NCBI GenBank assembly: GCA_048938005.1
Contig: JBHLMQ010000043.1
Coordinates: forward strand, 1-26,183
Direction of reading: 5' to 3'
DNA from: Promethearchaeota archaeon
GTDB taxonomy: Archaea; Asgardarchaeota; Lokiarchaeia; Sigyniarchaeales; SOKP01
DNA: 26,183 bases
Positions 796 to 24,214 of the stretch are shown piece after piece. The notes beneath the pieces were generated by a model. That model was not told the DNA's origin. It made no database searches and worked only from the letters and a program-made list of their open reading frames with translations. Numbering within the stretch: position 1 is the stretch's first letter; each line of letters starts with the position of its first letter. Position numbers and translations under genes: made by a program.

Positions 796-2109
796 TTAAT
801 GAGTAGCACACGAAATACAGGGATCAAAAGCTCTGATTATTCTCTGCACCTCTTTTTTCACTAAATTAATATCACCTGTTTTTTCAAATAATTCTTGAGC
901 ATGTTTCGTAATCATCTCATTAATAAGTGGAATATTAAACTCAGTAGCAATAAATAATTTTATTCGATCAATAGAATTACTTTCATTAAGGTGATAATGA
1001 TGAATTAATATCCCTCTAGGTGCTTCAATAATACCTATCCCATCCAGATTTGTTATTGAATTCAGAGGAGAAAATTTTTCTCTTATATTTAAAGAAGGAT
1101 CGTTTAAAATTTGTAATCCATGATAAGCTTCAATATACATTTCTAATAATCTAATAAAATTAGCAAATAATATATTGTTTTTCCATGATTTATTAAAATA
1201 ATCAAGATAGGTATGAACTTCATCAATTCCATAATCCTCGATAATATTATAACGGGAAAGGGGACCAACAATCACATTTTTTTTATTTTCAAAATAAAAA
1301 TCAATTCCACGTAAATCATTTTCTTTACCAAAATAGGCAGAATAGTTATTTTTTTCAAATTCTATCAAATTTTTATTGTTTTCTTTTATTCTTAAATTGC
1401 CTGAATAACGATCATAATTTTCATTGTTAGAAAGGCCAAGAAAAATAAAATGTGGAAAATAATATTCTTTTGGTGGTATTTGATTAGAAAACATTTCAAT
1501 AAATTTTTCTATAATCCATTCTAAATTGTTTAAAGCCTTTTGAAATTTCTTTTTAGCAAGTGAAATATTTTTTCTAAAAGGGGAATATATAACCCCTCCA
1601 GGGATAACTGAAATCAAATGAACAGACCTACCACCAAATAAATTATTTATTTCATTTCCAATTTTAATTAATTCATATAAATTTGATGCTAATTGAGGGT
1701 CATAATTAATTAATTCATAAGGAGTAAACGTTTTTTGACTAAAATCAAAAATTGCTAAGAGATCTGGTAAAGTTTGGAAGAAAAAATTCATAGAATGAGA
1801 TTTAATTAATTCTCCACTCATTAAAAGGTGTCTTAAAAGAATAGTTTGTTCTGAAACTTCGATGTTATATATATTTTCTATTGCTTTACAACTTGCGATC
1901 GCTTGAGAAGCATAACATAACCCACAAATTCGAGACACTATTTTTGGAATATCCAATAATTTTTTTCCGATTAAGAAATTTTCAAATCCTCGATATATTT
2001 CGAATTCAAAATTTACTAATGAAATATCATCATTCTGGAGTAAAATTTTTACATCTCCATGACCTTCAACTCGTTTGCAAACATCAATGACTTTTAACAA
2101 TCTTATCAC
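796..2109 (-). CDS. mvhA: [NiFe]-hydrogenase large subunit, group 3 (MvhA-like), with no C-terminal extension and a Gln in L1
   Basis: Motifs RVEGHG, L1 RICGLCYASQ, EAPRG and L2 RAFDPCISCATH followed directly by TAA. The start is GTG 2109 (overlapping the mvhG stop) or TTG 2100 after a GGTGA SD. Confidence 0.92.
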   Translation of the reverse strand: MIRLLKVIDVCKRVEGHGDVKILLQNDDISLVNFEFEIYRGFENFLIGKKLLDIPKIVSRICGLCYASQAIASCKAIENIYNIEVSEQTILLRHLLMSGELIKSHSMNFFFQTLPDLLAIFDFSQKTFTPYELINYDPQLASNLYELIKIGNEINNLFGGRSVHLISVIPGGVIYSPFRKNISLAKKKFQKALNNLEWIIEKFIEMFSNQIPPKEYYFPHFIFLGLSNNENYDRYSGNLRIKENNKNLIEFEKNNYSAYFGKENDLRGIDFYFENKKNVIVGPLSRYNIIEDYGIDEVHTYLDYFNKSWKNNILFANFIRLLEMYIEAYHGLQILNDPSLNIREKFSPLNSITNLDGIGIIEAPRGILIHHYHLNESNSIDRIKLFIATEFNIPLINEMITKHAQELFEKTGDINLVKKEVQRIIRAFDPCISCATH

Positions 2110-2864
2110 CTTCTAAATTTTGGTTTTGAATAGCGATAAAAAATACCAGTATAATCTTTTAATTCTTGAGATAAATTTATCAAGCTCAAATAATTAATAA
2201 GATTGGATGTAAAGTCTTTTGATACCGGGCCCATACATCCTTCGCATGGAAGCCCCATTTTTATGCATTTATATTCACAGCCATCACGAGTTATAGGACC
2301 TAAACATAAAATACCCTTTTCTAAAAAACATTCAGAATTTTCTTCATCTAGACTAATTTCTTCTGGATTTGGATTAATTTTCGAGATATTTATATGAGAA
2401 TTTATTTTCATATTCCCCTTTAATGAGCAATTAGCACACATGTTTTTCTCTGATAATATTATATCTTTATTCTCAACTAACCTGATTAGACTGTTTCCAA
2501 AAAGTTTAGAAGGAGGAGGACAACCAGGAATAATACCATCAATTTCAATATAATTAGAGATTGGATCTGCTACTTTTGAACTTGAAAGGCTTAAAATTCC
2601 TCCAAAACATGCACAGGTTCCCAAAGCATAAACTTTTTTTGCATGTTTTCGAACATCTTGAAGCACCGTTATTTGCGTTTCCTCAGAAACACAGCCTTCT
2701 ACTAAAGCAATATCTGAATCTTCAATATTTTTAGCATCTAAAATAAATTGAAAAAATATTATCCTTGTTCTCTCAAGGAATTGCGGAAAAATATCTAAAG
2801 AAATAAGAGTTGAGATGCACCCACTACAAGAAGTTAGAGAAATTATTATAACTCTAGGCTTCAA
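2106..2864 (-). CDS. mvhG: [NiFe]-hydrogenase small subunit (MvhG-like), about 252 aa
   Basis: Proximal-cluster motifs CSGC, VEG, GTCA and PGCPP. Distal Cys-rich region CANC...CFLEKGILCLGPITRDGC..KC...PCEGCMGP. Start moved from 2915 to TTG 2864, which follows an AGGAGG SD and gives MKPRVIIISLTSCSGC. Confidence 0.9.
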   Translation of the reverse strand: MKPRVIIISLTSCSGCISTLISLDIFPQFLERTRIIFFQFILDAKNIEDSDIALVEGCVSEETQITVLQDVRKHAKKVYALGTCACFGGILSLSSSKVADPISNYIEIDGIIPGCPPPSKLFGNSLIRLVENKDIILSEKNMCANCSLKGNMKINSHINISKINPNPEEISLDEENSECFLEKGILCLGPITRDGCEYKCIKMGLPCEGCMGPVSKDFTSNLINYLSLINLSQELKDYTGIFYRYSKPKFRR

Positions 2865-5403
2865 ACTTAATCTCCTCCTGTAATTTTTTATAAAATTTAT
2901 TTGAGATTTCAGCAAATCTATTACCCTCTACCGCATTCATATGTTCAATTACTATTCGATCTTTGTATTTCGGCGGTATAATATTTTTTAATAACTTAAT
3001 TTTGTTTTCTACTTTTTCGATTCCATCAATATATCGACAAGCATTTTGTCTACATCCAAATATCATTACTCCATCGAAACCGAGTTCAAATGATTTAATA
3101 ATAAAATTAGTATCAATACGTCCTGTACAAGGAACACGTACAATAAAAGTATTTGGATTATATGAAATTTTCTTAAGACCAGCATCATCAGCAGCGGCAT
3201 AACCACAAGAAGCACAACAAAATGCAATAATTTTTGGTTGCACTCTGAATTTTGAAAAAACTTTAATTGTTGCAAAAATCTTTTCAGAAGTGTCGATATT
3301 TAAATCTATTGCATTGGTAGGACAGACACTAACACAAGTACCACATCCCTTACATTTGAATTTATCTATACTTATTTTATCTGATTCTAATGTAATAGCA
3401 TTATAAGGACAAATTTTAACACAAAATCCACATAAACCACATTTATTTTCATCAATTTTAATTCCACTAAACTCTGCTATCAAATAATCTTTAGAAAGCA
3501 AAGAGATAATCTTTAAAGCACATTTATTAGCTGATGAAATTGTAGAATTATAATCTAATGGACCAAAGATAGTCCCAACTCCATAAATACCAGATGCTAA
3601 TGTATCTTCACTCATAAATCCATTATCATCTAGTGTAAAATCCATATATTTTCGAAAATTTGTTAAATCTTCATTAGGGATATATTTTAGATTTAATACT
3701 ATTAAATCGCTTGGAAATTCAATATTATCAGCAATAACATGATTTATATCTTTATTAGTTTCAATAGTAATTTGATTAGCATATAAAAATCTTGGATTTG
3801 TTGATCTTAACAAAATCTCTTCCTTATCTTTTAATTTACTTAAATCATAAAAAATATTGATTTCGCAATCAGGATTTCTTATCTTAATATCCTCAATATA
3901 TTTTTGCGCCAAAATTTCTGAGTAATTTGAAAGATATTTTGATGGACCAACCTCTTGGATAATAGAAATTGAGTTTATAGGTTTTTTATCTGATAATCTT
4001 ATAAGTTTTCCTTCAGTAATACCATCGTAAGATAATATACGTTCAAATTCTGGCGATGTTATTATATTATTTTGTGGATTATAGTGGTAATCCTCTAAAT
4101 CCCTATAAAAATCAGATCCAATAGCAATTACTTTACTGCCAACCTTGATTTCGAGTTTTTCTTCTTTTTGAGTTAAATCTATTGCTTTATTCACACACGC
4201 GCGTTCACAAATTCTACAATTAAGACAATTTTTTAGATCTTCTTCATCAATTAAAGGAATATATGGATATGAATGAATAAATGGGATATATATTATTTTT
4301 CGATTAGTTAAGCCAAATTCATATTGATTTGGTTTTTCTATACTACAAATTTCTATACAATGTTTACATCCAGTACATTTTTTTAAATCAATATAACGAG
4401 GTTTTTTAACCAAATTTAATGTGAAATTTCCTACTTCACCTGATACATTTTCAATATCAGTATTAGTAAAAATTTTTATATTTTTTTCATTCACTAATTC
4501 ACTTATTAATTCTGAAATAAAACATATTGAACAATCACCCATATTATGGATTCGATGCCATCTGGCTACCTTACCACCTAAAGTTGGTGATTTTTCAATT
4601 AGAAAAACTTTAATACCGGATCTTGCTAAATTTAAAGCAAGAGTTATACCTGCAATTCCGCCCCCTAAAATTGCACAGCTCTTTTCTATTTCAACTCTTT
4701 TAACTTCTATTTTTTTTTGAAGGTTTACACGTTCAATAGCAGCTTCAATTAATAACTTAGCTTTTTCTAATAAAAGTGAAGGATCTATTTGATTTATTTC
4801 AAACTGATGTGCCCAACAACATTGCTCTCTAATATTGGCTACTTCTATATTTGCACTGTCAATAACATTATCAAAAATTCGTTCAAAAAGATGTTGATGT
4901 GTTCTTGGAGAACATGCGGCTATTACAATTTTATTTAAAAAATTATCTTTAATCCATTGAGCAATTTTATTAAAATTCTTTTGTTGACATAAGTTCTCAA
5001 AAACTTTTACGGAAACTACTTTTTTTAACTTATTCACATAATTTTCAATTGCATTAATATTAATTATATTTGAAATTTCTGTATTACAAGTGCAAATTAT
5101 TACTCCAATTCGGCTTATTTCGCTTCCCTTTGAATCCAAATATTCGTCAATATTTTCGCCCGATAAAATTCTTTTATTAATATTAAGTATTTTAAGCACA
5201 CGTTTACCATCTTCAGTAAGAAAATATGATTTCCTATTTTTGCCTATTAATGAACTAATTTTTTTAAGATGAAAATTTAGTTGTCCCGTTGTTTCTAAAC
5301 CAAGTTTTTCCATTAAATCTGTATAGGGAATATAACCCTCCTTTTCTAATAATAATAAAATTTTTCTCCTAAATGGATGAGATAATATTGAATATATATC
5401 CAT
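2854..5403 (-). CDS. Winged helix-turn-helix :: degenerate HdrA :: MvhD fusion protein (849 aa)
   Basis: Residues 1-75 look like an ArsR-like wHTH (ILSHPFRRKILLLL...YTDLMEKLGL..TGQLNFHLKKI...YFLTEDG). HdrA motifs follow: IGVIICTC, AACSPRTH, NIREQCCWAH, GGGIAG, two 2x[4Fe-4S] domains and EFER. The C-terminal MvhD domain reads AFCCASCGYAAAD...RVPCTGRID...GCRQNACRY. Confidence 0.9.
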   Translation of the reverse strand: MDIYSILSHPFRRKILLLLEKEGYIPYTDLMEKLGLETTGQLNFHLKKISSLIGKNRKSYFLTEDGKRVLKILNINKRILSGENIDEYLDSKGSEISRIGVIICTCNTEISNIININAIENYVNKLKKVVSVKVFENLCQQKNFNKIAQWIKDNFLNKIVIAACSPRTHQHLFERIFDNVIDSANIEVANIREQCCWAHQFEINQIDPSLLLEKAKLLIEAAIERVNLQKKIEVKRVEIEKSCAILGGGIAGITLALNLARSGIKVFLIEKSPTLGGKVARWHRIHNMGDCSICFISELISELVNEKNIKIFTNTDIENVSGEVGNFTLNLVKKPRYIDLKKCTGCKHCIEICSIEKPNQYEFGLTNRKIIYIPFIHSYPYIPLIDEEDLKNCLNCRICERACVNKAIDLTQKEEKLEIKVGSKVIAIGSDFYRDLEDYHYNPQNNIITSPEFERILSYDGITEGKLIRLSDKKPINSISIIQEVGPSKYLSNYSEILAQKYIEDIKIRNPDCEINIFYDLSKLKDKEEILLRSTNPRFLYANQITIETNKDINHVIADNIEFPSDLIVLNLKYIPNEDLTNFRKYMDFTLDDNGFMSEDTLASGIYGVGTIFGPLDYNSTISSANKCALKIISLLSKDYLIAEFSGIKIDENKCGLCGFCVKICPYNAITLESDKISIDKFKCKGCGTCVSVCPTNAIDLNIDTSEKIFATIKVFSKFRVQPKIIAFCCASCGYAAADDAGLKKISYNPNTFIVRVPCTGRIDTNFIIKSFELGFDGVMIFGCRQNACRYIDGIEKVENKIKLLKNIIPPKYKDRIVIEHMNAVEGNRFAEISNKFYKKLQEEIKFEA

Positions 5404-5505
5404 TATATAAATCCCTCTTTTTTTTCCCTCAATTTCAATAAAAGTATTTTAATTCTACTCTAATTAAAACAAAAATTATTATTATTCATCTCTTGAATTT
5501 ACTGA

Positions 5506-6633
5506 TTAATATTTCCATGTTATCAATTTTTTTCTCATGTTTTTTTCCATTCTTACTATTTTTGATTGGGAGAATTGCGCAATTTTTTCTTTCATTTCCT
5601 TATGAGTAGAAGCATCCAAATTTAAAATTTTAATTACACCTGCCTTTATTACTTTATTCATTATTTCTTTTCCTTTTTTAGTGCGTATAATTACAGTTGT
5701 AAATTTATCTTGAGAGCCCAAACCTCCAAAAGAAATATCTGAGTAAATATTAGTGAAATCACCGCAAACACTACAAGCTGAGCGCATGTATTTTGTTAGT
5801 TTTTCAAAGGGTATATGGATAGTATTTTGAGAAGTTCCCTGATTCTTAAGGTTGATAATTAAATTTTCTTTAATGTTTAATCTTTCAATGTTTTTGAGTT
5901 TAAATTTAAATTCTTTTTCGAATTTCTCAACCCTTACTTTATCAAAAAAAAAATTCTCGTAGCAGAATAAGCCCAAACAAATTTCTATGTTTTCTGATGG
6001 AATAATCCCTAGATTTTGCATACACCTGATTGTATAGATCTGGCATGGTGTTCCAACTAATGCTAATTTCTTTAATTTATAATATCTTAATTTAGGTAAT
6101 GAGCGAGTATACGTGTGAAATTTTTGTACAGTATCTAACTGTGGAGATACGTCTAACGTAACACCTGAAGCTTTAATTAAATCTTCTTTACTTTTAGCGA
6201 GTATAGCTTCTCTAGAAAAAGGGGCTTTTGTTTTCGCAACAATTGCTCCATCAATCATTTTATTTTCTATTAAATAATTAATTATTGAGTTTACAACACC
6301 ACCATCTGTTCCATATTTCAAAAATTCTTTATCTGTGGCTTGGCAAGAATAAATTCTTTCTACAAATCCTAAAGGCATTGACGAAAAATCTGAAAAATTA
6401 AAAGTTTTATTGAGATCCGCGTCTAAAACGTGGGTCTGTGGACAAATAAGATAACAAATCCCACATTTAAGACACTTTTCTTTATTTATATATTCTGGAG
6501 GCAAATTTGGTTCCTTAAATCCAATTACCTCATTTTCAATTGAATTACAAAAACTTACGCACCCTCCACATTGCTGACAAATACCAGGCTTATGGACTTC
6601 TTCAATTAAATTATTAAAAGTTTTTATATTCAT
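5506..6633 (-). CDS. Coenzyme F420 hydrogenase/dehydrogenase beta-subunit family (FrhB-like) with an N-terminal ferredoxin domain
   Basis: CQQCGGCVSFC and CLKCGICYLICP, DGGVV, LVGTPCQI, GLFCYENF, CSVCGDFT..YSDISFGG. An AAGGGTGA SD lies upstream. Confidence 0.88.
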   Translation of the reverse strand: MNIKTFNNLIEEVHKPGICQQCGGCVSFCNSIENEVIGFKEPNLPPEYINKEKCLKCGICYLICPQTHVLDADLNKTFNFSDFSSMPLGFVERIYSCQATDKEFLKYGTDGGVVNSIINYLIENKMIDGAIVAKTKAPFSREAILAKSKEDLIKASGVTLDVSPQLDTVQKFHTYTRSLPKLRYYKLKKLALVGTPCQIYTIRCMQNLGIIPSENIEICLGLFCYENFFFDKVRVEKFEKEFKFKLKNIERLNIKENLIINLKNQGTSQNTIHIPFEKLTKYMRSACSVCGDFTNIYSDISFGGLGSQDKFTTVIIRTKKGKEIMNKVIKAGVIKILNLDASTHKEMKEKIAQFSQSKIVRMEKNMRKKLITWKY

Positions 6634-6707
6634 TATTAAAAATCACCCTTTTTTATTCATAATCTTAAAAATTATCATGATTATTTTAATAATTTTTATG
6701 ATTACCA

Positions 6708-6725
6708 TGATAAATATTATTGTCA
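6708..6725. promoter_or_regulatory. Candidate operator TGATA-N8-TGTCA, next to a minus-strand TATA-like box (TTTATATA, about 6729-6736) for the frhB-like operon
   Basis: An 18-bp variant of the perfect palindrome at 6875-6892. Confidence 0.5.
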
Positions 6726-6874
6726 AGATATATAAATATGATCTTTTTGAATCATGATATGACCATAGATCATAATAAATCACGATCAATACCTATATTG
6801 TAAATCAGAGAAATGATCATATAAATACTAAGAAAGACTAAAGAAAGATCAAAATTGTGCTTTTAATGAAAAAA

Positions 6875-6956
6875 TGACAAATTAATTTGTCAAAATAAGA
6901 TTAATTTTTCTTATCAGATTTTTTAAATCTCTTTTAACTCATCATATAATCGGAAT
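6875..6956 (+). promoter_or_regulatory. Promoter block of seleno-hdrA: perfect palindrome TGACAAATTAATTTGTCA (6875-6892), AATTTTTCTTATCA box and TTTAAA TATA-like box
   Basis: The palindrome is read directly. The block aligns ungapped with 16003-16084 at 63/82 positions. Confidence 0.7.
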
Positions 6957-7074
6957 ATAACGGAAAAGAAGTAGGCTTAATTACATTTTTGTAAATTTTG
7001 CATTATTTCTCAAAACAAAATTTTGAAATTTTATCATAAAGAATATTTGGTGATGTTTGAAAAAGGTGGATTAA

Positions 7075-9111
7075 ATGTCTGAAAAACAGACCATTGTTAG
7101 AATAGGAGTATATATTTGTAGATGAGGAGTCAATATTGGTGCTAAAATTGATTGTGATATTATTAGAGATTATGTTGAGGCACTCCCTAATATAATTGTT
7201 GCTAGAGTAAATGATTTTACTTGTAGCGATCCAGGACAAAATATTATTAAAAATGATATTTTAGATTTAGACTTAAATCGAGTAGTTGTTGCAGCTTGTA
7301 CACCAAAAATTCATGAATCCACTTACCGAAAAGTGTTAACTGAAGCTGGTTTAAATCCATATTATTTTCAAATGGTTAATCTCCGCGAACATTGCTCTTT
7401 TGTATCCTCAGGTAATAAAAGAAATAACACAGAAAAAGCTATAAGATTAATACAAGCAGGAATAAACAGGGCACGAGAATTAGAAATTATTCCTCATAAA
7501 AAAATTTCAGTGAAAAAAGAAGTATTAATAATAGGAGCAGGAATTGCTGGGATGAATGCTGCATTAGATTTAGCAAATCAAGGGATAAAAGTCTATTTAG
7601 TCGAAATAGAAGCTACAATTGGTGGAAAAATGGCACAATTAGATCGAATTTATCCAACTGATGATTGTGCTATATGAGTTCTCGCTCCTATTATGGTCAG
7701 TACTTCAAAACATCCAAATATAACATTATTTACTTATAGTGAAGTCGTTGAATTCAGTGGCATCCCTGGGAATTATGATATTAAAATACGGAAAAAGCCC
7801 CGTTATATTGATGAAAAAAAATGTACTGGTTGTGGATTATGTACAACAAAATGTCCAATAAAAGTACCAAACGAATTTAACAGAGGTATTGGTGAGCGAA
7901 ATGCGATTTACATACCTTTCCCACAAGCAGTCCCAAAAGTTGCTCTAATTGATAAGAGTATATGTATAGGATGTAAAAATTGTCAAACAATTTGCCCCGC
8001 AGAAGCCATTGACTTAGACCAATCTTCAGAATATTTTGATTTCAAAGTTGGTGCAATAATTATAGCCACAGGATGGGATGAATATCCAATTATGAAAAAT
8101 AACGAATATAAATATGGTATTTATCCCGATGTAATTACTCAAATAGAGTTAGAACGTATGTTAAGTCCAGTTGGACCAACAGGAGGCCATGTATATAAAA
8201 TTTCTGACGGAAAAATCCCAAAAACAGTGGCTATGATTCAATGTGTGGGTTCAAGATCCTTAAAAGGGAATCCCTATTGCTCAGGAGTATGTTGTAATGT
8301 TGCTCTTAAAAATGCTCAATTATTAAAACAAGAATATCCTGATATAGATATTGCCATTTTTTATATAGATATGCGAACATGGGATAAAGGAAATGAAGAA
8401 TATTATAGAAAAGCGAGAGAAGCGGGGATAATGATGATTCGGGGAAAAGTAGGAGACATACGAGAAGAGCCAAATACAAAAAAACTAAAAATACGAGCTT
8501 CATCAACCTTAACAAATGATATTATTACAATGAATACAGATTTAGTTGTATTATCAACGGGTATGGTTCCTTCTAAAAATACTGCACAAATAGTTGAGAC
8601 TTTAAGTTTAGGCAAAGACATAAATGGGTTTTTAACTGAAGTTCATGGATGTTTAAAACCTCAAGAGACAAATAATATGGGCATTTATATATGTGGCTGT
8701 GCTGCTGGCCCTAAAAATATCCCTTATTCAGTATCTACAGCCCTAGCCGCAGCAAGTAAGGCATCTACATTACTTTCTAAAGAGACAATAAGTAAAGAAT
8801 TAATTATTGCTGAAATAAATGAATCTAAGTGTATGGGATGTCATAGATGCGAAAAACTCTGTAATTATAATGCTATAAAGATTAATGAAGAAAATATTGC
8901 TGAAGTAGATGATCTAAATTGTAAAGGTTGCGGGGTTTGTGTATCCTCATGTCCCGCTCATGCAATCGATCTCAAATATTATAGAGACAAACAAATTATT
9001 AAAGAAATAAAGGGGATCTTTAGTACTGACCTTGAATATAAGGAAGAATTTATTGAATCTATTGAACTAATTTGGAAAAAGATTGAAGCACTAGCTCCTC
9101 ATAATATATAA
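7075..9111 (+). CDS. hdrA: Heterodisulfide reductase subunit A, selenoprotein with two Sec (U17, U201), 678 aa
   Basis: ATG 7075 follows AAGGTGG. A single frame is interrupted only by TGA 7123-7125 (GVYICRUGVNIG) and TGA 7675-7677 (YPTDDCAIUVLAP). The paralogue at 10821..13934 has Cys at both sites (VCRCGTNIG, FPTLDCSLCILAP). This call merges track ORFs 7333..7677 and 7693..9111. Confidence 0.93.
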
Positions 9112-9186: not shown

Positions 9187-10317
9187 TTATAATTGAGTAT
9201 TTGTTTTTAATGAAATTAATTTTTTATACCAATTAAGTTTCTTATTTATCCAATCTCGACTTTCGCTAGCTGCTACAATAAATTGTTCAATTAATCCATA
9301 AGAAAGAAGAGATTTGATTATTTTATGACCTATTTCTGTTCGAATAAGTATCATTGAATAATCTTTTGGTGCTCCAGATGATCCAATACTTATATCTGAA
9401 AATCGACCAGTAAATTCATTACATTCGTGGCAATGTTTTCTGATTGCAGGGTCTAGTTTTTTGATGTCTACTTCAATTTCTTCATTTTTTTTAGTAGATA
9501 TAAAAAAATTCTTCTTTATCCATGTTTTTTCAATATTAATTGGATTTACATTTACTTCTTTTCTTAAGATATCGAATAATTTGCTATAATCAAAATTTTC
9601 GAAACAAAAGAGACTTATAATATATTTAATAACATGAGCGGGTTTAATACGTAAAAAACGCATTTTGCTTATTGCTCTGCATTGACAAGGTGTGCCAACA
9701 AATGCCAAGCGTAATTGGTCTATGTCAAAAATCCTTCTTTTCCTGAAAATTTCTTGTGAAATATGATATAAATCCTTTAAAGGGATTATCTGAGAAGATA
9801 TGGAAAAGCGTGTCCCTGCTGATTTTAACAAATCATCTTTGTCAAATATAATTTTTGGAATTGGTTTAAAGTTTTTATCAAATTCCGAAACTATAGCGGC
9901 ATCAATCTTGTATTTATCAAATAGATAAGCTAGAATTGTTGAAACTACACCTCCATTTTGTCCAAGTTTCGCTATCGCAGCGTTTGTTGTTTTTGCTGCG
10001 AGAATTTTAATAATATGTCCAATTTTATCTTCAATTTTGTAAGCATTATTTAATTCTTTTAATAATGGGGAAGTTTGAGGACATATATAATAACATACAC
10101 CACATTCAGTACAATTATAGCCATTTTTTTCTGATTTAAACCTTGGTATATATTCATCCATTTCAATAACATCAAAATTTTGACTTTCACAATATGCTAC
10201 ACATGCAGCACAACTACAGCATTTATCAGTTTGTATAATTTCATTATCAAGGTCTTTAAAAGTTTTTAAATTAAAATCAATAAATTTTTTAGAATTTGAT
10301 TCAGTCATAATAACCAT
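9187..10317 (-). CDS. FrhB-like F420-dependent oxidoreductase beta subunit with an N-terminal ferredoxin domain (second copy)
   Basis: CCSCAACVAYC, CTECGVCYYICP, GQNGGVVS, FVGTPCQ, LFCFENF, CHECNEF..RFSDISIG. The start may be ATG 10308. Confidence 0.88.
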   Translation of the reverse strand: MVIMTESNSKKFIDFNLKTFKDLDNEIIQTDKCCSCAACVAYCESQNFDVIEMDEYIPRFKSEKNGYNCTECGVCYYICPQTSPLLKELNNAYKIEDKIGHIIKILAAKTTNAAIAKLGQNGGVVSTILAYLFDKYKIDAAIVSEFDKNFKPIPKIIFDKDDLLKSAGTRFSISSQIIPLKDLYHISQEIFRKRRIFDIDQLRLAFVGTPCQCRAISKMRFLRIKPAHVIKYIISLFCFENFDYSKLFDILRKEVNVNPINIEKTWIKKNFFISTKKNEEIEVDIKKLDPAIRKHCHECNEFTGRFSDISIGSSGAPKDYSMILIRTEIGHKIIKSLLSYGLIEQFIVAASESRDWINKKLNWYKKLISLKTNTQL

Positions 10318-10338
10318 CCTTTTATTTCTAATTTTTAA

Positions 10339-10818
10339 TTAATTACGTTTAAATTCCATTATTCCAAATTTTTTGGGGATTTTTGATTCCCCTAACTCTT
10401 TAATTGTTTTTGTAAATTCTATGATAAGCTCTGAAAATTGTTTCCCTTCGCTTGCTGAAATTGAGTATACCCGAAATCTCCCTTCCTCAATTCCGATCAT
10501 TTTTAATAAATTCTTTAAATGTTCCATTCTGATTAGCATATATTCAAAACCGTGTATATAATGACAATCACCCTTATGGCATCCAATAATTAATACACCA
10601 TCTATTCCATTATTAAAAGATCTTAAAATATATATAGGCTCAATTCTGCTTGAACACATTACTCTAACAATTCTAATGTTTGGAGGGTATTGGAATCTTG
10701 ATACTCCTGCTAAATCCGCTCCAGCATAACTACACCAATTACAGCAAAATACTAAAATAGTTGGTTCAAAATCTTTGATTAATCTTTTCTTAATTTTTAA
10801 CAAGTTATACTCACCCAT
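10339..10818 (-). CDS. mvhD: Hydrogenase [2Fe-2S] subunit MvhD (Cys form)
   Basis: FCCNWCSYAGADLAG, RVMCSSRI, GCHKGDCHY, ISASEG. Confidence 0.95.
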   Translation of the reverse strand: MGEYNLLKIKKRLIKDFEPTILVFCCNWCSYAGADLAGVSRFQYPPNIRIVRVMCSSRIEPIYILRSFNNGIDGVLIIGCHKGDCHYIHGFEYMLIRMEHLKNLLKMIGIEEGRFRVYSISASEGKQFSELIIEFTKTIKELGESKIPKKFGIMEFKRN

Positions 10819-10820
10819 CT

Positions 10821-13800: not shown

Positions 13801-13934
13801 GCCATAGTTCCTCCAATTGTAGGTTTAATTTCAACTAGATATACTTTAAACCCTAACTTAGTGAGGTCTAATGATGCCTGTATACCAGCTATTCCACCCC
13901 CGATAACTAAAACATTACTCTGCAGTTTTTGCAT
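10821..13934 (-). CDS. hdrA: Large HdrA-like protein with two FAD-binding modules (1037 aa)
   Basis: Two GGGIAG Rossmann motifs and two cluster motifs (QCVGSR..YCSAICC; LCVDQR..YCSNICC). The HdrA N-terminal domain (GILVCRCGTNI, ASCTPRTH) sits in the middle, and there is a C-terminal 2x[4Fe-4S] domain. Confidence 0.9.
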   Translation of the reverse strand: MQKLQSNVLVIGGGIAGIQASLDLTKLGFKVYLVEIKPTIGGTMAQLDKIFPTLDCSLCILAPKMVDVYRNPNIELFTYSYVKKIRGCAGNYTILVIRKPRYIKEDVCKGCGDCAKICPVKGIPSEFDTHLKTRESIYIPFPSSVPPVYLIDDTNCLYLNFRICGICANACNADAIDFFQKPEEITLNVGAIVIATGESQEMPEIYTNFAGDSPNVLSSMQFERLLSANGPTGGQIIKLDDKKRPQSIAFIQCVGSRNVHHSGCKKYCSAICCMNSAKEAIVVKEHDPNIECYIFNTEIRAKGKSFYEFIEKSKYEYKVKYINGRVSYIKGNLANGKLKLYFEDVDRGKVGTFEVDMAVLASALSPTPSYYKLLKQLNVNSNDLGYIREKDIILLERKNIFVTGYSRKPNDIQMAVAEGSACAAKISEKLYSVRFQKIKKIKYPPEITITPEDTPRVGILVCRCGTNIGGIVNVSEVVNYVSKLPYVVHVEENMYSCSSDSQERIKDLIIKYNLNRFIVASCTPRTHEQLFRSTLKEVGLNPFLFELVNIRNQDSWVHQKEPEMATKKACDLIRMYLGKVINLKPLDIIKVKVIKSSLIIGGGIAGITAAHNLANQGFEVYLVDKKSLLGGVAIEFIDLYYIPITKTQILQKINDLKNNSNVHILLNSLVVDIQGYVGNYQVKVRNLQKNSEDQLFKVGTIIVATGTKQIKTNRWSYLSERYPKQVLTQTELTSTKDEDIPRFNDALIILCVDQRRNQYNNGDNIKTYCSNICCGVALKNIEKLLNINPKAHIHVLYREFQFSDLNAENLWRNLRQKVTYEKYNSIDDIKISDENGKFHIRYKNIGAGTDLEYNVDLLILATPKVPAEGTEQLAKLLKVPTNKDGFFLEADAKLRPIDFATEGIFLCGGAHWPKWIGESITQAYGAAGRAAILMIKGEIEAECITSEINEDKCIGCGRCAEICPYNAIELYETTKQMGLYTINIHKARVIKAVCKGCGGCVAECSVGAIDQNHFSKFQINQMIDLLPGIESPIYDIA

Positions 13935-13989
13935 TTTTTAATCATCATAAAATATTATTTATTTAACAAATCGAGTTTTCACAATGTAT

Positions 13990-15246
13990 TTAAACAAGAA
14001 AAAGCAATTTTCCTATAAAGCTTGCTAAATCCATCACCTTTATATTGTTTCTTAGATCTTTTTTCTCTTCATTTGAAGAAGGTTCGTTTAGATAACAATT
14101 GAAATGTGTCAAACATTTTGGACAACAAACAATTAAGTATTCCGCGCTAGTATTAATTGCTTCATTTATACGATTTTGCCTTAAAAAGCGTGAATATTCA
14201 TTACAATTTAGAAATGTTGCGACGCCACAACAATTAGCATCATCTTTAATATTATCCATTTCTATCAATTCAACTCCTGGAATTTGTCGTATCAATTCTC
14301 TTGGAGCGTCATATAATTTTCCACCTAAACGTCCCATTCGACAAGAGTCATGATATGTTACCTTAATCTCAGAACTTTGAGGAAATTTAACATATTCAAG
14401 AATTTTTTCTTTTAAAAAAAATTCAGAATAATGAAAAACTTTGAAATCAAAACCATCTACTATTTTTGGATAATCATATTTCCATATTCTATATCCTTCA
14501 GCACATCCAACTATAACAATTTTTACTCCAGCATCCTTATAAAGCTGGGTATTATATTCAGCAAATTTTATAAAAGTTTCAATATCGCCCTCACCCCATA
14601 AAATATCATGGCCACAGCATTTTTCATTTAAAACTACCGGTACAATATTGGCCTCATTAAGTAAGCTTATTATCGTTATGGGTATTTCGGTATAATTACA
14701 TTTAAAATTATAAAAAATTTCTTCCATTAAAGGCAAACATCCAATAAAATAAGCAATTTCGCCTGAATCTGCTGTTTTTAGCTCTTTTTCTTCCAAAAAA
14801 TCTAATTTATTTGGATTTATTGGATTATTTGCTGTCATTTTCGAAATTAAGGGTACAATTTCATTATGAGTTTCACACTGAGTAATTCTATCAATTTGAA
14901 TTTTACTATTTCTTGATGCCTTTCTCAATTCTAAGATTAAATCAGGTATTCTTACTCCTAAATTCTCTTGAGTCATTGGACAATATATTGAACATTGACC
15001 ACATGTAAGGCAATTCCATATATTATGATTAGTTAAGACTTCTTCTATTGGATATAAGATTAAATCTCCTACCAATTTTCGTGGAAAAAATACGTCTAAA
15101 TGCGAAAGTGGACACACATTTACACATCGATTGCAGGCAAAACAATAATTTGCCATTGAAATTACATTTTTAATAGTTACCCCTAAGTTTTGAAAGTTAG
15201 AATTACTACACTTAATTTCATTGTTAATATAAGAAGACATAGACAA
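13990..15246 (-). CDS. HdrD-like Fe-S oxidoreductase (4Fe-4S dicluster plus two CCG domains)
   Basis: CFACNRCVNVCP, CLTCGQCSIYCP, KCCGH, GCAEG, YHDSCRMGR, NCCG, CCPKC. The start is TTG 15246 or ATG 15240. Confidence 0.88.
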   Translation of the reverse strand: MSMSSYINNEIKCSNSNFQNLGVTIKNVISMANYCFACNRCVNVCPLSHLDVFFPRKLVGDLILYPIEEVLTNHNIWNCLTCGQCSIYCPMTQENLGVRIPDLILELRKASRNSKIQIDRITQCETHNEIVPLISKMTANNPINPNKLDFLEEKELKTADSGEIAYFIGCLPLMEEIFYNFKCNYTEIPITIISLLNEANIVPVVLNEKCCGHDILWGEGDIETFIKFAEYNTQLYKDAGVKIVIVGCAEGYRIWKYDYPKIVDGFDFKVFHYSEFFLKEKILEYVKFPQSSEIKVTYHDSCRMGRLGGKLYDAPRELIRQIPGVELIEMDNIKDDANCCGVATFLNCNEYSRFLRQNRINEAINTSAEYLIVCCPKCLTHFNCYLNEPSSNEEKKDLRNNIKVMDLASFIGKLLFLV

Positions 15247-15480
15247 TTATTCCTCGATGTAAATTTCAAAATATCCGCATTTAGAACAAACATAAGTTCT
15301 AACATTAGGAGCCCTGCGTCTGAAAATGTAGTCTTTATTTTCTAGAAGTGCCCCACATTTAATGCAAATTTCTTTTTCTTCCTTCTTTTCTATTAACGTG
15401 TATTTACCACCCCCAATTTTAATATAAAATTTAATATTTTTAGGAATTAAATATATTATTTTGAAAAGATCAATCTCCAT
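15247..15480 (-). CDS. Small zinc-ribbon protein
   Basis: CIKCG...CSKCGYFEIY; abuts the hdrD-like start. The true start is uncertain, because an internal GGGGGTGG SD-like run at about 15406-15413 suggests a shorter product. Confidence 0.7.
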   Translation of the reverse strand: MEIDLFKIIYLIPKNIKFYIKIGGGKYTLIEKKEEKEICIKCGALLENKDYIFRRRAPNVRTYVCSKCGYFEIYIEE

Positions 15481-15895
15481 TATAAAAGAAGTAATTTATA
15501 TTTAAAAATTCTTACATTGAATAGAGTTTTTTCTCCATTATTAAATCTAAAAATAGAATTAATACTATGTATAATTAATAATATTAATCTTTTTGGTAAT
15601 AACATATGATGATTTTGAGAACATTTTTGATCGAGATGGATAATCCTATATCTAATTTATACATATTATTTAACGATATTTTTAAAATGAAAAAGACATT
15701 TTAAAGATTTTAACAGATTTGTGAATTAATACTTAGCAATCTTGTCTATATTCATATATTAGTAATTCTAAGTCTATTAAGGTTATTAACCTCTTTCATC
15801 AAAGAATAATTCTAAAATAAGACTAATTTTAATTTTCTACTGATTGAATAAAAAAATAATTAAAATCTATCATTTAATTTTTTTATCAAAATATT

Positions 15896-15913
15896 TGACA
15901 AAAATAATTTTCA
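15896..15913. promoter_or_regulatory. Candidate operator TGACA-N8-TTTCA
   Basis: An inverted near-copy of the site at 16003-16020. Confidence 0.5.
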
Positions 15914-15973
15914 AAACATAATTTTTAAAATTATGAAATCGTTAAAGTGAGGTTAAATCTTCAATTTTCTTAA

Positions 15974-16084
15974 TGATAAGAAAAATTATTTAAATAATAT
16001 TTTGAAAATTTTATTTGTCAAAATGACTAAAATTTTTCTTATCAAATTATTTAAATTTTAATCAAATTATTATATAATTGGAAT
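15974..16084 (+). promoter_or_regulatory. Promoter block homologous to 6875-6956. TGAAA-N8-TGTCA (16003-16020) is flanked by a perfect 14-bp inverted repeat, TGATAAGAAAAATT (15974-15987) / AATTTTTCTTATCA (16031-16044).
   Basis: Direct sequence comparison. Confidence 0.7.
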
Positions 16085-16184
16085 TAATCTCATAGCTCAA
16101 AAAGATGGATTGGGTTCATCTTATGAAGTTATGATAGTTTCATGAAGTTATATTAAAAATAACATAAAAAGGTATATATTTAAG

Positions 16185-16814
16185 ATGGAAGTATTAGAAT
16201 TAAAACCAATAAAAAACAAAAGTATATGTATATATTTAATAGAAAAATCGAGATTTAATTTTCTACTCAATGATATTGAAAATTTAAATGAATTAATACA
16301 TAAGAATGATATTAACTTTATTACAATTGATATAGATGGCGAAGATTTCAAAAAGTTCAAAAATTCAAGTTTTTCAAAGGTTCTCAATGCTTTAAATATA
16401 GAATATTATCTATTAGATATGCCTGAGTATGCATATGGATATATATATGAAGAAATAGTGAGAAAAGAAGAACAAGTTAGTGAATTATTACATGAATATC
16501 AAAATATGATTGATAAAGACTCTTTTAAATGCCTAAACTTAAAATCCTGGATTGATGTTCTTAAGAACGAAATAATACAGGACAAAAATATTTTAGAATT
16601 AAAAATAAGACCACAATGGATTGTTAAAAAAATTTTAAATTTAGTTAAAAAACAAAAAAATGAGAATATTTCTCTAATTCATTTTGCTCATGAAAAAATT
16701 ATTTCAGAAACAATTAAGCAATTAAATGAGCTTCATATAGAAGTAATTTTTTATGACTTTAATTGTATTTACAATATCCCATATTTAATTATAAAACAAG
16801 GGGAGAGTAATTAA
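16185..16814 (+). CDS. Hypothetical protein, paralogous to the N-terminal domain of the downstream gene
   Basis: Starts MEVLELKPIKNKS versus MEVLELKPLKKKS, with colinear similarity throughout. TAATG stop/start overlap with the next gene. Confidence 0.8.
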   Translation: MEVLELKPIKNKSICIYLIEKSRFNFLLNDIENLNELIHKNDINFITIDIDGEDFKKFKNSSFSKVLNALNIEYYLLDMPEYAYGYIYEEIVRKEEQVSELLHEYQNMIDKDSFKCLNLKSWIDVLKNEIIQDKNILELKIRPQWIVKKILNLVKKQKNENISLIHFAHEKIISETIKQLNELHIEVIFYDFNCIYNIPYLIIKQGESN

Positions 16815-18499
16815 TGGAAGTTTTAGAATTAAAACCTTTGAAGAAAAAAAGTTTGAAATTGGTATTGATAGAAAGTGAATTTCCAATAGAGTGGTGGTTT
16901 GAGACATCAGCACAGAAAAAGCATGATTTAGTATGGAATTTACATCTAATTTCGAAGGAATACCTTAATCTAATTAAAGATCTCATAGCAAAATATAATC
17001 CTGATTTTGCTGTCGAGGAGAAAGGAAGTCGATGGGAAGATACAATATCTCACGATGATCCTTTAGAAACATTATTCAGGGAATATAAAATCCCATATAA
17101 AATGGTAGATATTTCAGAAAATGCAGAAAATTATCTTTCCTCGAATTTGGAAGATCACAGACAACTTATAAAGCAATTAATAATATCAATTAAAGATATT
17201 AAAAAGAGTAATGATAAAAACTTTCCAAAAGATGATTTTGAGTTTCAGAGAATGGTTTTATGGAAGGAATATTTGCAGCAAGAATACAACCTTCAAGAAA
17301 ATGAAATAAGATATAATGTTCGTGAAGCTTGGATGATGATGGGAATTATAAAATTTGCAAAGAAAATGATTGAAAAAAAATTGAAAGCATTCTTTATCTG
17401 TGATCATAGGCATTTCAAAGGTATCACTAAATTAGCAGAAGATTTAGGCATTCAAACCGAAGAAATAAGAATCAAACGGTTAGCAAAAGTTATAAATAAT
17501 CCTGGTTCTAATTCCATTAATACTATAATTGGCAAATCTATACTTGAATTATCTCCAATTAAAGTGAAAAAGAATGAATCACTAGAAAAAATTTGTTACT
17601 TTTTTGATACTGATGATAATGCTTCTCCTTTCGATATAAATATGGCTTATGATGCTGGTTTTGATGTTGTTATCCCTATTAGTAAGATGACTGCTGAGCA
17701 AGTCCCAAAGCTAGTACAGGATGCCATTTTTTCACGTAAGCCAAAAGCACCCACAACATTTTTTATTGGCGGTTCTAATGTTAAAGAAGGAGAGGAAATA
17801 GCTAAAAGAGTTATAAAATCGTTAATAAGCCCATTTGAATGTCCAGTGATTATTGATCCTCGTGGTTCTCACACCACAGCCTCTTCAATCGTTGCTAAAA
17901 CTATTCAAGTCGCAAGGGAACTTGATCTATATGATTTAAAAGGTAAAAAAGTAGTTATTTTTGGAGCAGGACCAGTTGGAAGAATAGCAGCTATACTAGC
18001 AGCAAAATTAAAATGTACAACTTATCTAGTAGAAACATGGGAAAAATCCAGTGAACAATCTATTAAAAAATTGGCAAAAGAATTAATGGAAGAAGCTGGA
18101 GAAAATGCTACAGAAATTGTGGGTATTTTTGCACCAAACGATGAAAAAAAATTAGAAATAATAAAAGATGCAGATATTATTTGGTCACTTGCTGCTGCTG
18201 GAGTACAAATATTATCAAAAAGTTTAATGCTTAAACTTAAAAATAAAATTCTAATTGATATAAATTTAGTTCCTCCTTATGGAATTGAAGGATTAAAGCC
18301 AAAAGATGATAACAAAGAGATCTATCCAACTATATACGGAATTGGCGCTTTAGCTTTAGGGCGTTTGAAATCTAATATTGAGGCAAATATACTTAAAGAA
18401 GCATCAAATAGTAAGGGAAAAAAAATTTTTGATTATAATTATGCTTTTGAACAAGCAAAGAAGATCTTGTTAGGAAATGAAATAAAAATCTCTGCTTAA
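16814..18499 (+). CDS. Unknown N-terminal domain (about 245 aa) fused to NAD(P)-dependent methylene-tetrahydromethanopterin dehydrogenase (MtdA/MtdB family)
   Basis: SPFDINMAYDAGFD, QDAIFSR, FIGG, DPRGSHTTA, GAGPVG, AAAGVQI, DINLVPPYGIEG and GIGALALG are MtdA/B family motifs. Confidence 0.88.
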   Translation: MEVLELKPLKKKSLKLVLIESEFPIEWWFETSAQKKHDLVWNLHLISKEYLNLIKDLIAKYNPDFAVEEKGSRWEDTISHDDPLETLFREYKIPYKMVDISENAENYLSSNLEDHRQLIKQLIISIKDIKKSNDKNFPKDDFEFQRMVLWKEYLQQEYNLQENEIRYNVREAWMMMGIIKFAKKMIEKKLKAFFICDHRHFKGITKLAEDLGIQTEEIRIKRLAKVINNPGSNSINTIIGKSILELSPIKVKKNESLEKICYFFDTDDNASPFDINMAYDAGFDVVIPISKMTAEQVPKLVQDAIFSRKPKAPTTFFIGGSNVKEGEEIAKRVIKSLISPFECPVIIDPRGSHTTASSIVAKTIQVARELDLYDLKGKKVVIFGAGPVGRIAAILAAKLKCTTYLVETWEKSSEQSIKKLAKELMEEAGENATEIVGIFAPNDEKKLEIIKDADIIWSLAAAGVQILSKSLMLKLKNKILIDINLVPPYGIEGLKPKDDNKEIYPTIYGIGALALGRLKSNIEANILKEASNSKGKKIFDYNYAFEQAKKILLGNEIKISA

Positions 18500-18555
18500 T
18501 TTTTTTTTAATTTTTAAAATTTACTTAAATAAAGAATAAAAAAATTGGAGTGAAT

Positions 18556-19387: not shown

Positions 19388-19393
19388 AAATAT

Positions 19394-20185: not shown

Positions 20186-20197
20186 AATAATATAGCC

Positions 20198-23809: not shown

Positions 23810-24190
23810 ATGCCAGAAATTCATGAAAGCTATGAGAATTATTTAAAAGCAATATGTTTAATTTCAAAAGGTAATAAAGGTGGTTGGACATCCAATTCCG
23901 AAATCTCAAATTTCTTAAATGTTAAACCATCTTCAGTGACTAACATGTTATATAATTTAAAAGAAAAGGGATTAATAACATGGAAGCCAAGGAAATCTCT
24001 AAGATTAACTAAAAAAGGAAAAGAAATTAGTATGAACATCATTAAAAACTATAATTGTTTATTTTCATTTTTTATAAAGGTTCTAAAGGTAAAAAATAAA
24101 TCCATTGTGCATAAATTATCTTGTGAAATTGAGCATCATCTAAATCCTGAAGTATCTAAAGCATTAGAAAATCTAGTCCTTGAATATTAA
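23810..24190 (+). CDS. DtxR/MntR-family metal-dependent transcriptional regulator
   Basis: ENYLKAI, LNVKPSSVTNML, LTKKG, CEIEHHL. Confidence 0.9.
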   Translation: MPEIHESYENYLKAICLISKGNKGGWTSNSEISNFLNVKPSSVTNMLYNLKEKGLITWKPRKSLRLTKKGKEISMNIIKNYNCLFSFFIKVLKVKNKSIVHKLSCEIEHHLNPEVSKALENLVLEY

Positions 24191-24214
24191 TGATTCTTGC
24201 TTTTTATAACGTCT

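Follow-up and report, generated by a model that had tools for sequence, protein, structure and literature searches.

Why would a [NiFe] hydrogenase of an archaeon be encoded in one operon with a protein that begins with the fold of a transcription factor? This question is raised by a locus in the window, by which we mean the whole 26,183-nucleotide (nt) stretch of Promethearchaeota archaeon DNA analyzed here (about 28% GC; contig C78 in a 3.72-Mb genome of 101 contigs). Four co-oriented genes, all on the minus strand, form the operon: an frhB-like gene, a gene that fuses a winged helix-turn-helix (wHTH) domain to HdrA and MvhD, mvhG and mvhA. A preliminary description of this DNA had named the same four genes, and gene calls and domain searches agree with it. 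Our comparisons suggest that the fusion is quite probably a DNA-binding regulator of the frhB operon and of a second operon in the window, which encodes a protein of 209 amino acids (aa), U209, and an MtdA-like protein. Whether it is also a hydrogenase-wired transcription factor that responds to redox state or H2, specialized towards sensing in this lineage, we judge to be evenly poised. The features of the first operon are as follows:

6633..5506, minus strand: frhB-like gene, 375 aa; first operon gene in this sub-lineage only
5403..2854, minus strand: wHTH::HdrA::MvhD fusion gene, 849 aa
5188..5403, minus strand: ArsR-type wHTH domain, fusion residues 1-72; DUF7347 match above the Pfam cut-off
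nt 5119-5187, minus strand: variable linker after the wHTH, fusion residues 73-95
3907..3960, minus strand: lost [4Fe-4S] ligand site in the TrxR-like domain of HdrA, residues 482-499, located by alignment to 8rvu_a
2857..3258, minus strand: MvhD ([2Fe-2S]) domain, joined to the C-terminal end of the HdrA part, residues about 716-849
2915..2106, minus strand: mvhG, [NiFe]-hydrogenase small subunit; Pfam PF01058, VhuG-like in NCBIfam
2109..796, minus strand: mvhA, group-3-type [NiFe]-hydrogenase large subunit, 437 aa

The N-terminal domain of the fusion was assigned by profile and by structure. Residues 2-71 matched the wHTH family DUF7347 (PF24038) with an E-value of 5e-9 and 36.6 bits, above the Pfam cut-off of 27.6, and the NCBIfam ArsR/SmtB model gave a sub-threshold score (23.5, cut-off 55). 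An AlphaFold2 model of residues 1-95, with a mean predicted local distance difference test score (pLDDT) of 87, showed helices and hairpin in the order of the ArsR family, that is, helix 1, helix 2, helix 3, recognition helix, hairpin and helix 5. When this model was used in Foldseek, all 37 rows listed were wHTH transcription regulators of the ArsR/SmtB, HxlR/DUF24, MarR and PadR types, including YodB and CadC, with NolR bound to DNA at the top; the probabilities were about 1.0 and the template modeling (TM) scores 0.5-0.7. A profile search with the wHTH found 2581 proteins, and 9/10 of those scanned carry DUF7347; five scanned DUF7347 proteins that are neither HdrA fusions nor TPR proteins have the domain alone or together with HTH_20 or HTH_5. 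The remainder of the fusion is composed of known parts. Residues ~95-714 align end to end with the solved HdrA chains 8rvu_a and 5odc_A (E about 1e-107), Pfam places flavin adenine dinucleotide (FAD)/Rossmann and 4Fe-4S motifs in the middle of the protein, FlpD/MvhD covers residues 725-843 (E 9e-34), and solved MvhD chains can be aligned to residues 721-842 (E 1e-23 to 1e-24). Of the HdrA paralogues encoded in the same genome, which number more than 15, this is the only one with the wHTH.

The identity of the wHTH to that of the window protein in four lineage groups was 82, 60, 57 and 43%, and the corresponding values were 81, 65, 57 and 42% for the FAD domain and 79, 36, 26 and 12% for the linker. 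Because the wHTH is conserved as strongly as the FAD domain, these values indicate that it is under selection and that the linker is free to vary. In the alignment of the orthologues, G40, N43, H45 and L46 in the region of the recognition helix are invariant or nearly so, and no conserved Cys is found in residues 1-100. Modeled as a homodimer, the wHTH reached a score of 0.57 (best control, 0.08), a value attained by 20/30 proteins that were solved as pairs and by 1/23 solved as single chains; the runs share at least 85% of their contacts, and the pLDDT of the partner is at least 86. The modeled dimer is symmetric, and its interface, formed by helix 1 (residues 2-13) and helix 5 (residues 68-89), is the canonical one of the ArsR family, although the favorable score may reflect likeness to solved ArsR dimers.

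In a search of 5.8 billion proteins, PF24038 was present in 107 of the 120 best relatives listed, most of them exactly 849 aa long and encoded in metagenome-assembled genomes of various Asgard groups. The 13 of these 120 relatives that do not show the wHTH family are 793-821 aa long, lengths that fit start codons called at an internal Met. An artefact of assembly or gene calling was rejected, since the same 849-aa frame recurs across many assemblies; a fusion unique to this assembly, which the preliminary description had named as the finding that would speak against it, is not what these independent assemblies show. In a survey of 400 Asgard species genomes with residues 1-240 as the query, where a best E-value of at most 1e-47 defined a full-length match and rows were counted by eye, the fusion was present in about 120 of 399 genomes from nine family groups, in frames of about 840-900 aa. 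By group, it was found in 91/134 genomes of f1, the lineage of the window, 1/1 of f2, 3/4 of f4, 3/3 of f5, 2/2 of f6, 6/19 of f19, 3/6 of f21 and 4/5 of f28, and in 7 genomes of f31. None of the 14 f3 genomes, several of them single-contig, has it.

The fusion and the hydrogenase genes travel together. We compared 32 close loci from species-representative genomes and 16 distant loci in which the fusion is 36-57% identical to that of the window. The genes for the fusion, MvhG and MvhA are adjacent in 25/25 close loci where the contig allows (the other 7 end before mvhA), and their order is the same in 16/16 distant loci. As the preliminary description had noted, the last three genes of the operon overlap. 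The overlap is 4 nt for mvhG/mvhA; for the fusion and mvhG it is 62 nt with the mvhG start as listed, a TTG at 2915, or 11 nt with an alternative in-frame TTG at 2864, which has GGAGG ahead of it, gives a better match to the distant orthologues and is likely the true start. A gap of 102 nt, without overlap, separates frhB from the fusion. The frhB-like protein matches PF04422 (FrhB_FdhB_N, E 3e-15) and PF04432 (FrhB_FdhB_C, E 2e-37), and its N-terminus is a 2x[4Fe-4S] ferredoxin domain; matches to the NCBIfam frhB models lay below their cut-offs. An frhB orthologue stands directly upstream of the fusion in 15/32 close loci and 0/16 distant loci. Because it is present in about half of the close loci and in no distant ones, frhB was rejected as a core component, and an input from F420H2 through this subunit, which had been suggested initially, lies outside the core system as a lineage-specific addition.

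Upstream of the fusion operons we found a recurring palindrome, GACAA-N6-TTGTC, often right after a TATA-like box. A wHTH dimer such as the one modeled fits this 5-6-5 arrangement, with half-site centers 11 bp apart. The regular expression GA[CT]AA-N5-9-TT[GA]TC matches 25/48 upstream regions (450 nt), and its genome background is 0.047 per kb. When up to one mismatch is allowed, the pattern in International Union of Pure and Applied Chemistry (IUPAC) code has four matches in the window, all of them in two promoter regions, where 1.13 would be expected in the whole window, and 3/100 window shuffles reach four matches. A position weight matrix (PWM) was built from 26 distinct sites. The four sites of the window are:

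6706..6727, no strand: palindrome 1, immediately after a TATA-like box and about 75-95 nt ahead of the frhB start
6873..6894, no strand: palindrome 2, between the frhB operon and a divergent selenoprotein hdrA, at a distance of 167 bp from palindrome 1
15894..15915, no strand: palindrome 3, upstream of the U209/MtdA-like operon; PWM score 17.0 bits, one IUPAC mismatch, outside the training set
16001..16022, no strand: palindrome 4, about 165 nt ahead of the U209 start; 17.9 bits, one IUPAC mismatch, outside the training set

In held-out checks, the PWM placed one or two sites upstream of frhB, at about 94 and 262 nt, in 15/15 frhB-type loci with upstream sequence, only one of whose sites had served in training, and a site between mvhA and the MtdA-like gene in 8/9 f31/f19 loci. 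The 3.72-Mb genome contains 8 hits of at least 17 bits, and five locally shuffled genomes contain 1-4. Four of these hits are intergenic, namely the two training sites upstream of frhB and the two non-training sites upstream of U209; the other four fall inside open reading frames (ORFs) and equal the shuffle level. Exact matches number 3, 4 and 7 in the f1 genomes G188, G189 and G149, respectively, with two in each genome located just upstream of the operon. We also searched fifteen genomes that do not have the fusion for the MtdA-like gene: 10 do not have it and 5, all of the same genus, do (64-68% identity). The palindrome was found within 1.5 kb upstream of the MtdA-like gene in 0/5 of these; the best PWM scores near the gene were 2.6-7.1 in four of them, and 11.4, inside the reading frame of the gene itself, in the fifth. 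The two sites upstream of frhB in the window, like those of the 11 other frhB-type f1 loci with two sites (L001, L003-L006, L009, L012, L017, L019, L020 and L029), are spaced by 167-169 bp, or about 16 helical turns, and the sites in f21 by 157-158 bp. Such a fixed spacing hints at cooperative binding or DNA looping. A DtxR-type regulator (23810..24190) was considered as the binder of the palindrome and set aside, as it adjoins Feo and ZIP metal-uptake genes.

The second promoter region with palindromes precedes two genes that bear on what the fusion may control:

16185..16814, plus strand: U209, 209 aa, no Pfam family
16814..18499, plus strand: gene of the MtdA-like protein, 561 aa

Residues 258-552 of the 561-aa protein constitute a complete MtdA-like NADP-dependent methylene-tetrahydromethanopterin (H4MPT) dehydrogenase (Pfam Mpt_N; PDB 6tlk, 6tge and 1lu9, E about 1e-27). 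This gene is syntenic with the triad formed by the fusion, mvhG and mvhA in 19/48 loci. It directly follows mvhA on the same strand in 9/9 f31/f19 loci, and in f21 (2 loci), f4 (2) and f1 (6) it is found upstream of the fusion in divergent orientation; a divergent arrangement of U209 and the fusion is seen in f4 and at six f1 loci. The distance between the MtdA-like gene and the triad in the window is 10.8 kb. From synteny and palindromes, we consider the MtdA-like gene a probable regulon target or functional partner of the fusion, and U209 a probable regulon member. Both the operator and this likely target are additions to the preliminary description. A search for MtdA in Lokiarchaeota found nothing. 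U209 is paralogous to the N-terminal ~250 residues (16814-17580) of the 561-aa protein, and their opening peptides are nearly the same. Neither U209 nor this N-terminal domain belongs to a Pfam family, and the ESM Atlas search with the latter gave Asgard hypothetical clusters and a TraB/GumN match at 0.80 that is too weak to use. In a fusion-less genome of the same genus (L054; G191:C30, 1238-1456), a 73-residue fragment that is 64% identical to MvhA residues 135-207 adjoins the MtdA-like gene and looks like the relic of a deleted triad.

A probable DNA-binding regulator that is translationally coupled to a hydrogenase leads to the question of what the hydrogenase and the HdrA body have retained. 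Aligned with solved HdrA, the fusion has lost the four Cys of the CxGxRD...CSxxCC motif at residues 482-499, which bears out the earlier report of lost cluster ligands. The Cys of the N-terminal domain, the pair C291/C294, both ferredoxin domains and the Cys of MvhD are retained. In the solved complex, as described in PMC13580544, the [2Fe-2S] cluster of MvhD feeds the FAD through the Cys pair, HA4 takes the high-potential electron to HdrBC, and HA5 and HA6 lead to ferredoxin. The lost cluster would be HA4, the wire to HdrC/HdrB, an assignment made by elimination and not from coordinates. A search for CSx2CC did not assign the cluster. Such a loss is in keeping with the absence of HdrBC: HdrB, HdrC and HdrD are not encoded within the operon, as was noted before, an HdrD-like gene sits in the next operon (13990..15246), and neither the operon nor the flanks of the distant loci were found to encode HdrB/HdrC CCG partners, the HdrD-like CCG protein being 8.6 kb away in the window. 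The loss of HA4 alone does not render HdrA inert. The non-catalytic HdrA of the preliminary description is therefore not upheld, given that the lost cluster would be the HdrBC exit and that the other clusters and the FAD motif are intact.

MvhA shows two features that had been pointed out as typical of sensors, and both were confirmed. In its L1 motif, RICGLCYASQ (nt 1903-1932), Gln69 occupies the position four residues past the second L1 Cys, where 7t2r_D and 5odc_F have His; this Gln is present in 25/25 close orthologues. Its C-terminus is the His of DPCISCATH (nt 799-825), followed by the stop codon, and the solved 5odc_F runs 25 residues further; the tail-less end is found in 23/23 complete close orthologues. 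Both are traits described in the literature on H2-sensing hydrogenases, a Gln at the L1 His position in PMC5665086 and the lack of a C-terminal extension in PMC8229454. The closest solved relative of MvhA is 7t2r_D, from an electron-bifurcating NiFe hydrogenase (E 1e-54), followed by 5odc_F (1e-49) and the NAD-reducing 5xf9_D, and the curated NCBIfam relatives of MvhA and MvhG are the ShyA, VhuA and VhuG models. Since all these best solved and curated relatives belong to group 3, membership of MvhA in group 2b was rejected. MvhG has enough Cys for three clusters. Two other large subunits are encoded in the same genome. The one at C9:11516-12760 is Vhu-like and stops before the L2 motif, as where a separate VhuU peptide supplies L2, and the one at C23:1835-3082 resembles group 3b and has both the L1 His and a tail, 7 residues long, ahead of a TGA stop.

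These traits are distributed among the fusion-bearing lineages as follows, where the HA4 Cys are those of the cluster assigned by elimination:

f28, f31 and f19: HA4 Cys kept, L1 His, tail of 7-12 residues
f21: HA4 Cys lost, L1 His, tail present
f4: HA4 Cys lost, L1 Gln, tail of 6 residues
f1 (window lineage): HA4 Cys lost, L1 Gln in 25/25, no tail in 23/23

Because f31, f19 and f28 retain the Cys, the His and short tails, the wHTH fusion is older than the sensor-like changes. The ancestral unit, as judged from these sequences, is a wHTH-HdrA-MvhD protein with a canonical-looking Mvh hydrogenase, and the loss of HA4, the Gln and the tail-less end are later, lineage-specific specializations. 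The preliminary description had treated the DNA-binding fusion, the lost ligands and the sensor-type large subunit as three independent oddities pointing the same way. The fusion with Cys, His and tail in f28, f31 and f19, together with the mixed states of f21 and f4, does not agree with this, and when the association between the architecture and a tail-less MvhA with Gln, which it had proposed to test across Asgard archaea, was examined, the architecture was found to recur but, among the lineages listed, the traits co-occur in f1 only. In f31, MvhA (L038, L041, L047, L048 and L051) has lost the Glu and the His of the R.EGH motif in 5/5 cases and retains the L1 His, a second-sphere change other than the Gln of the window; f19 MvhA retains the R.EGH Glu.

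From these elements we propose the following model. Two copies of the fusion would form a dimer in which the HdrA bodies meet in the manner of solved HdrA dimers and the wHTHs contact each other by their helices 1 and 5, and the paired wHTHs would offer two recognition helices to GACAA-N6-TTGTC. The fusion would thereby bind at the promoter of its own operon and at that of U209/MtdA-like, beside or downstream of the TATA-like boxes, where binding would most simply result in repression; through the shared divergent regions, it could also control the selenoprotein hdrA and the operon for HdrD-like, HdrA, MvhD and FrhB proteins. H2 would be oxidized by MvhA/MvhG, translationally coupled to the fusion, and the electrons would pass from the three MvhG clusters to the [2Fe-2S] cluster of the fused MvhD, then to C291/C294 and to the FAD of HdrA, in which the ferredoxin-side clusters remain. 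In the solved Mvh-Hdr complex, as described in PMC13580544, the HdrA N-terminal domain, MvhD and MvhAG form a mobile arm with two states. The wHTH is tethered to this N-terminal domain of HdrA by the variable linker, and because of this tether the redox state set by H2 is proposed to alter the geometry or availability of the wHTH and hence its DNA binding. In the window lineage, the HdrBC exit (presumably HA4) has been lost, and MvhA has a regulatory-type Gln and a tail-less end; these three traits argue for a specialization as a sensor, one that would have a low turnover and would adjust a Wood-Ljungdahl (H4MPT) step, as well as its own synthesis, to the supply of H2 or redox equivalents. For the deeper lineages, a bifunctional trigger enzyme is as plausible as a sensor. 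The earlier proposal that the MvhAGD-HdrA wire has been repurposed for DNA binding thus stands in part: the palindrome, the ArsR-like fold, the modeled dimer and the conservation favor a regulator, and we infer the rest, that is, the binding of the palindrome by the wHTH, the sign of the regulation, its dependence on H2 or redox state and the arm mechanism.

Several observations weigh against a sensor of this kind or against the role of the fusion at the palindrome. All four Cys ligands of the Ni-Fe site and the R.EGH Glu are retained in MvhA, as are all the clusters of MvhG, MvhD and the ferredoxin domains, and with such a set the complex still looks fit for catalysis; the frhB gene in the operon looks like a catalytic add-on. 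The deeper lineages with the fusion do not have the sensor-like traits. That the lost cluster was assigned to HA4 by elimination is a weakness of the argument. Tail-less large subunits are also known in energy-converting enzymes. The E-values of the Foldseek matches were weak, from 2e-3 for the best to 3e-2. The palindrome could be bound by another factor. In f28, no site of at least 14 bits was found at the loci, and one f28 genome has no exact match to the pattern; the f4 loci, too, lack any site that reaches 14 bits, their matches being to the regular expression only. The five fusion-less genomes that have the MtdA-like gene are close kin, so they would represent one or few independent events. 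Finally, the regulatory-type Gln "seems not to be involved in H2 sensing", in the words of PMC5665086.

Part of this evidence agrees with an FrhB-HdrA-MvhD-MvhG-MvhA complex that is primarily a working hydrogenase and whose wHTH provides feedback control of its operon and of the MtdA-like gene, an explanation that we regard as a genuine but minor possibility and as the main rival in the window lineage. By analogy with PutA, such a trigger enzyme might, for example, link H2 to ferredoxin and to a further carrier, F420 or NADP(H) for instance, and in this way supply or drain the MtdA-like step, with the feedback exerted when it is idle or oxidized. PutA is a flavoprotein with an N-terminal DNA-binding domain, of the ribbon-helix-helix type, in which the redox state of the flavin selects DNA binding or enzymatic work; it is a transcriptional repressor with proline as the signal. 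The likeness is a functional analogy only, with no sequence relationship, and PutA does not have a hydrogenase or an Fe-S wire. No catalytic ligand of MvhA and no cluster of MvhG or MvhD has been lost, and the FAD motif is retained together with the ferredoxin-side clusters; deeper lineages combine the wHTH with HA4, the L1 His and short tails; frhB has been recruited into the operon; the large subunit nearest to MvhA among solved structures comes from an electron-bifurcating hydrogenase; in the f31/f19 loci, mvhA is followed by the MtdA-like gene; and the palindrome evidence applies equally. However, no high-potential exit is evident in the window lineage, where HA4 is apparently lost, no HdrBC is encoded in the operon and the lost-cluster region of the fusion contains no NAD(P)-type GxGxxG motif. 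Moreover, canonical Vhu-type and 3b-type hydrogenases are already present in the genome, and MvhA has undergone second-sphere changes more than once, with the Gln in f1 and f4 and the R.EGH Glu missing from 5/5 f31 loci.

It is unlikely that the protein is solely an enzyme, a variant Mvh-HdrA hydrogenase whose wHTH serves structure or docking and does not bind DNA, with the palindrome belonging to an unrelated regulator. Many enzymes have put winged helices to use in contacts between proteins, the name given to the protein in public annotations is hydrogenase iron-sulfur subunit or HdrA, and f28 has the fusion without a site of at least 14 bits; but the palindrome tracks the fusion over lineages at 36-93% identity and is absent from the five fusion-less relatives, no other conserved DNA-binding gene lies nearby (the sole other regulator of the window is of the DtxR type, beside iron-uptake genes), the residues G40, N43, H45 and L46 hardly vary, and the modeled dimer has the canonical ArsR interface. 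Least probable of all, to the point of being improbable, is a sensor of the ferredoxin pool or of oxygen and oxidative stress in which Fe-S clusters and flavin do the reporting and the hydrogenase just re-reduces them: the ferredoxin-facing HdrA clusters are kept, many structural neighbors are thiol/quinone redox sensors (YodB, OhrR and SarZ) and the neighboring operons with common palindrome regions encode more Hdr-type redox proteins, but an always-adjacent, translationally coupled hydrogenase would be a costly reset device, and the wHTH does not have a conserved Cys.

Returning to the proposed hydrogenase-wired transcription factor, we compared it with systems of known function. It resembles the regulatory hydrogenases HoxBC/HupUV (group 2b, with the HoxJ kinase and HoxA) in the proposed use of a [NiFe] hydrogenase for the control of transcription, and also in the L1 Gln and the missing extension of the large subunit, which are lineage-specific in the window system. 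It differs from them in its subunits, which are group-3 Mvh/Vhu-like and not group 2b, and in its archaeal host. HoxBC/HupUV signals through a PAS histidine kinase and a response regulator, whereas the output of the window system would be direct, through the DNA-binding domain on HdrA-MvhD. No kinase or receiver domain was found in the ORFs scanned with Pfam (the four operon genes, the nine larger ORFs of 1-22666 and eight of 15247-26182), a scan that left out the selenoprotein hdrA (7075-9111) and a 78-aa ORF at 7003-7239. With the MvhAGD-HdrABC complex of methanogens (5odc, 8rvu and 9sw2-6), the window system shares the MvhA, MvhG, MvhD and HdrA parts and their cofactor motifs, including the MvhD-FAD Cys pair, the cluster of the N-terminal domain and the two ferredoxin domains. 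In contrast to that complex, it has an additional N-terminal wHTH, MvhD fused to HdrA, no HdrB/HdrC in the operon, the L1 Gln and no tail, and four TrxR-domain Cys have been lost. MvhA, MvhG and MvhD are encoded together, a trait of Mvh/Vhu group 3c, and their adjacency is conserved; on its sequence, however, the system does not show all the defining features of a canonical Mvh-HdrABC. The order of the HdrA-MvhD fusion is that of HdrA2 from Methanosarcina acetivorans (NF040770), the best NCBIfam model (E 1e-172), for which the window protein scored 575.9 bits against a cut-off of 1100; HdrA2 has neither a wHTH nor an adjacent hydrogenase. The partners of HdrA2 are HdrB2C2. The ArsR/SmtB repressors (NolR, CadC and archaeal ArsR-like proteins) have in common with the window system the fold, the modeled dimer interface and a palindrome that overlaps the promoter. 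Metal-site motifs were not noted in the window wHTH, and its sensor would be a flavo-Fe-S protein of ~750 aa plus a hydrogenase. The system would therefore work like a regulatory hydrogenase and like PutA while belonging to neither family, its parts being drawn from the Mvh/Hdr and ArsR families.

The initial impression that no such system had been described was borne out: no description of a wHTH-HdrA fusion was found in the literature searched, with supplements and subscription papers outside its scope. HdrA-HdrA and HdrA-MvhD fusions of Asgard archaea are listed in PMC11237513, whose listing does not include a DNA-binding fusion and whose supplementary tables may do so. H2 exchange is central to the presumed syntrophy of Asgard archaea and to hydrogen-based models of the origin of eukaryotes. 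To our knowledge, no archaeal H2 sensor has been reported, and none turned up in our literature searches. If the proposed model is correct, a hydrogenase coupled directly to a DNA-binding flavoprotein would represent a new signaling logic and would extend the roles of HdrA beyond catalysis. The locus also provides a concrete candidate operator and candidate target genes, one of them for a Wood-Ljungdahl step, in organisms that are difficult to grow, and the predicted operator makes the idea open to tests with short DNA and recombinant protein. Catalytic features are lost by degrees over the lineages, which offers a natural series for the evolution from enzyme to sensor. A bolder version, which we put forward with some doubt, is that the system represents the first H2 sensor known from archaea and a transducer of a new class, in which a redox-driven swing of the Hdr arm opens or closes the wHTH dimer on its operator, ambient H2 thereby sets the expression, and perhaps the direction, of the H4MPT branch, and the family records the lineage-wise decay of a bifurcating enzyme into a pure sensor.

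The two regions with palindromes are each shared with a divergent neighbor:

7075..9111, plus strand: canonical hdrA, a selenoprotein with in-frame TGA (Sec) at 7123-7125 and 7675-7677, identified by alignment
9187-15480, minus strand: second redox operon, for a 77-aa zinc-ribbon-like protein, a 418-aa HdrD-like CCG protein (13990..15246), a 1037-aa double-HdrA, a 159-aa MvhD and a 376-aa FrhB-like protein

The canonical hdrA is divergent from the frhB operon, and the palindromes between them are common to both. Its TGA codons stand where other HdrA have Cys, one in the CxC of the N-terminal domain and the other at the second Cys of the DCxxC pair, and the gene, which is split in ORF lists, looks like that of a double selenoprotein. 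The second redox operon, with five proteins, is divergent from the U209/MtdA-like operon, with which it has the palindrome-bearing region 15481-16184 in common. The synteny of both neighbors is kept in most of the close loci. Beyond the MtdA-like gene, a metal-homeostasis cluster (19394-26182) encodes a TauE-like exporter, FeoB, FeoA, a DUF5320 protein, the DtxR-type repressor and a ZIP transporter, together with a radical-SAM protein and a NifU-like fragment at the end of the window.

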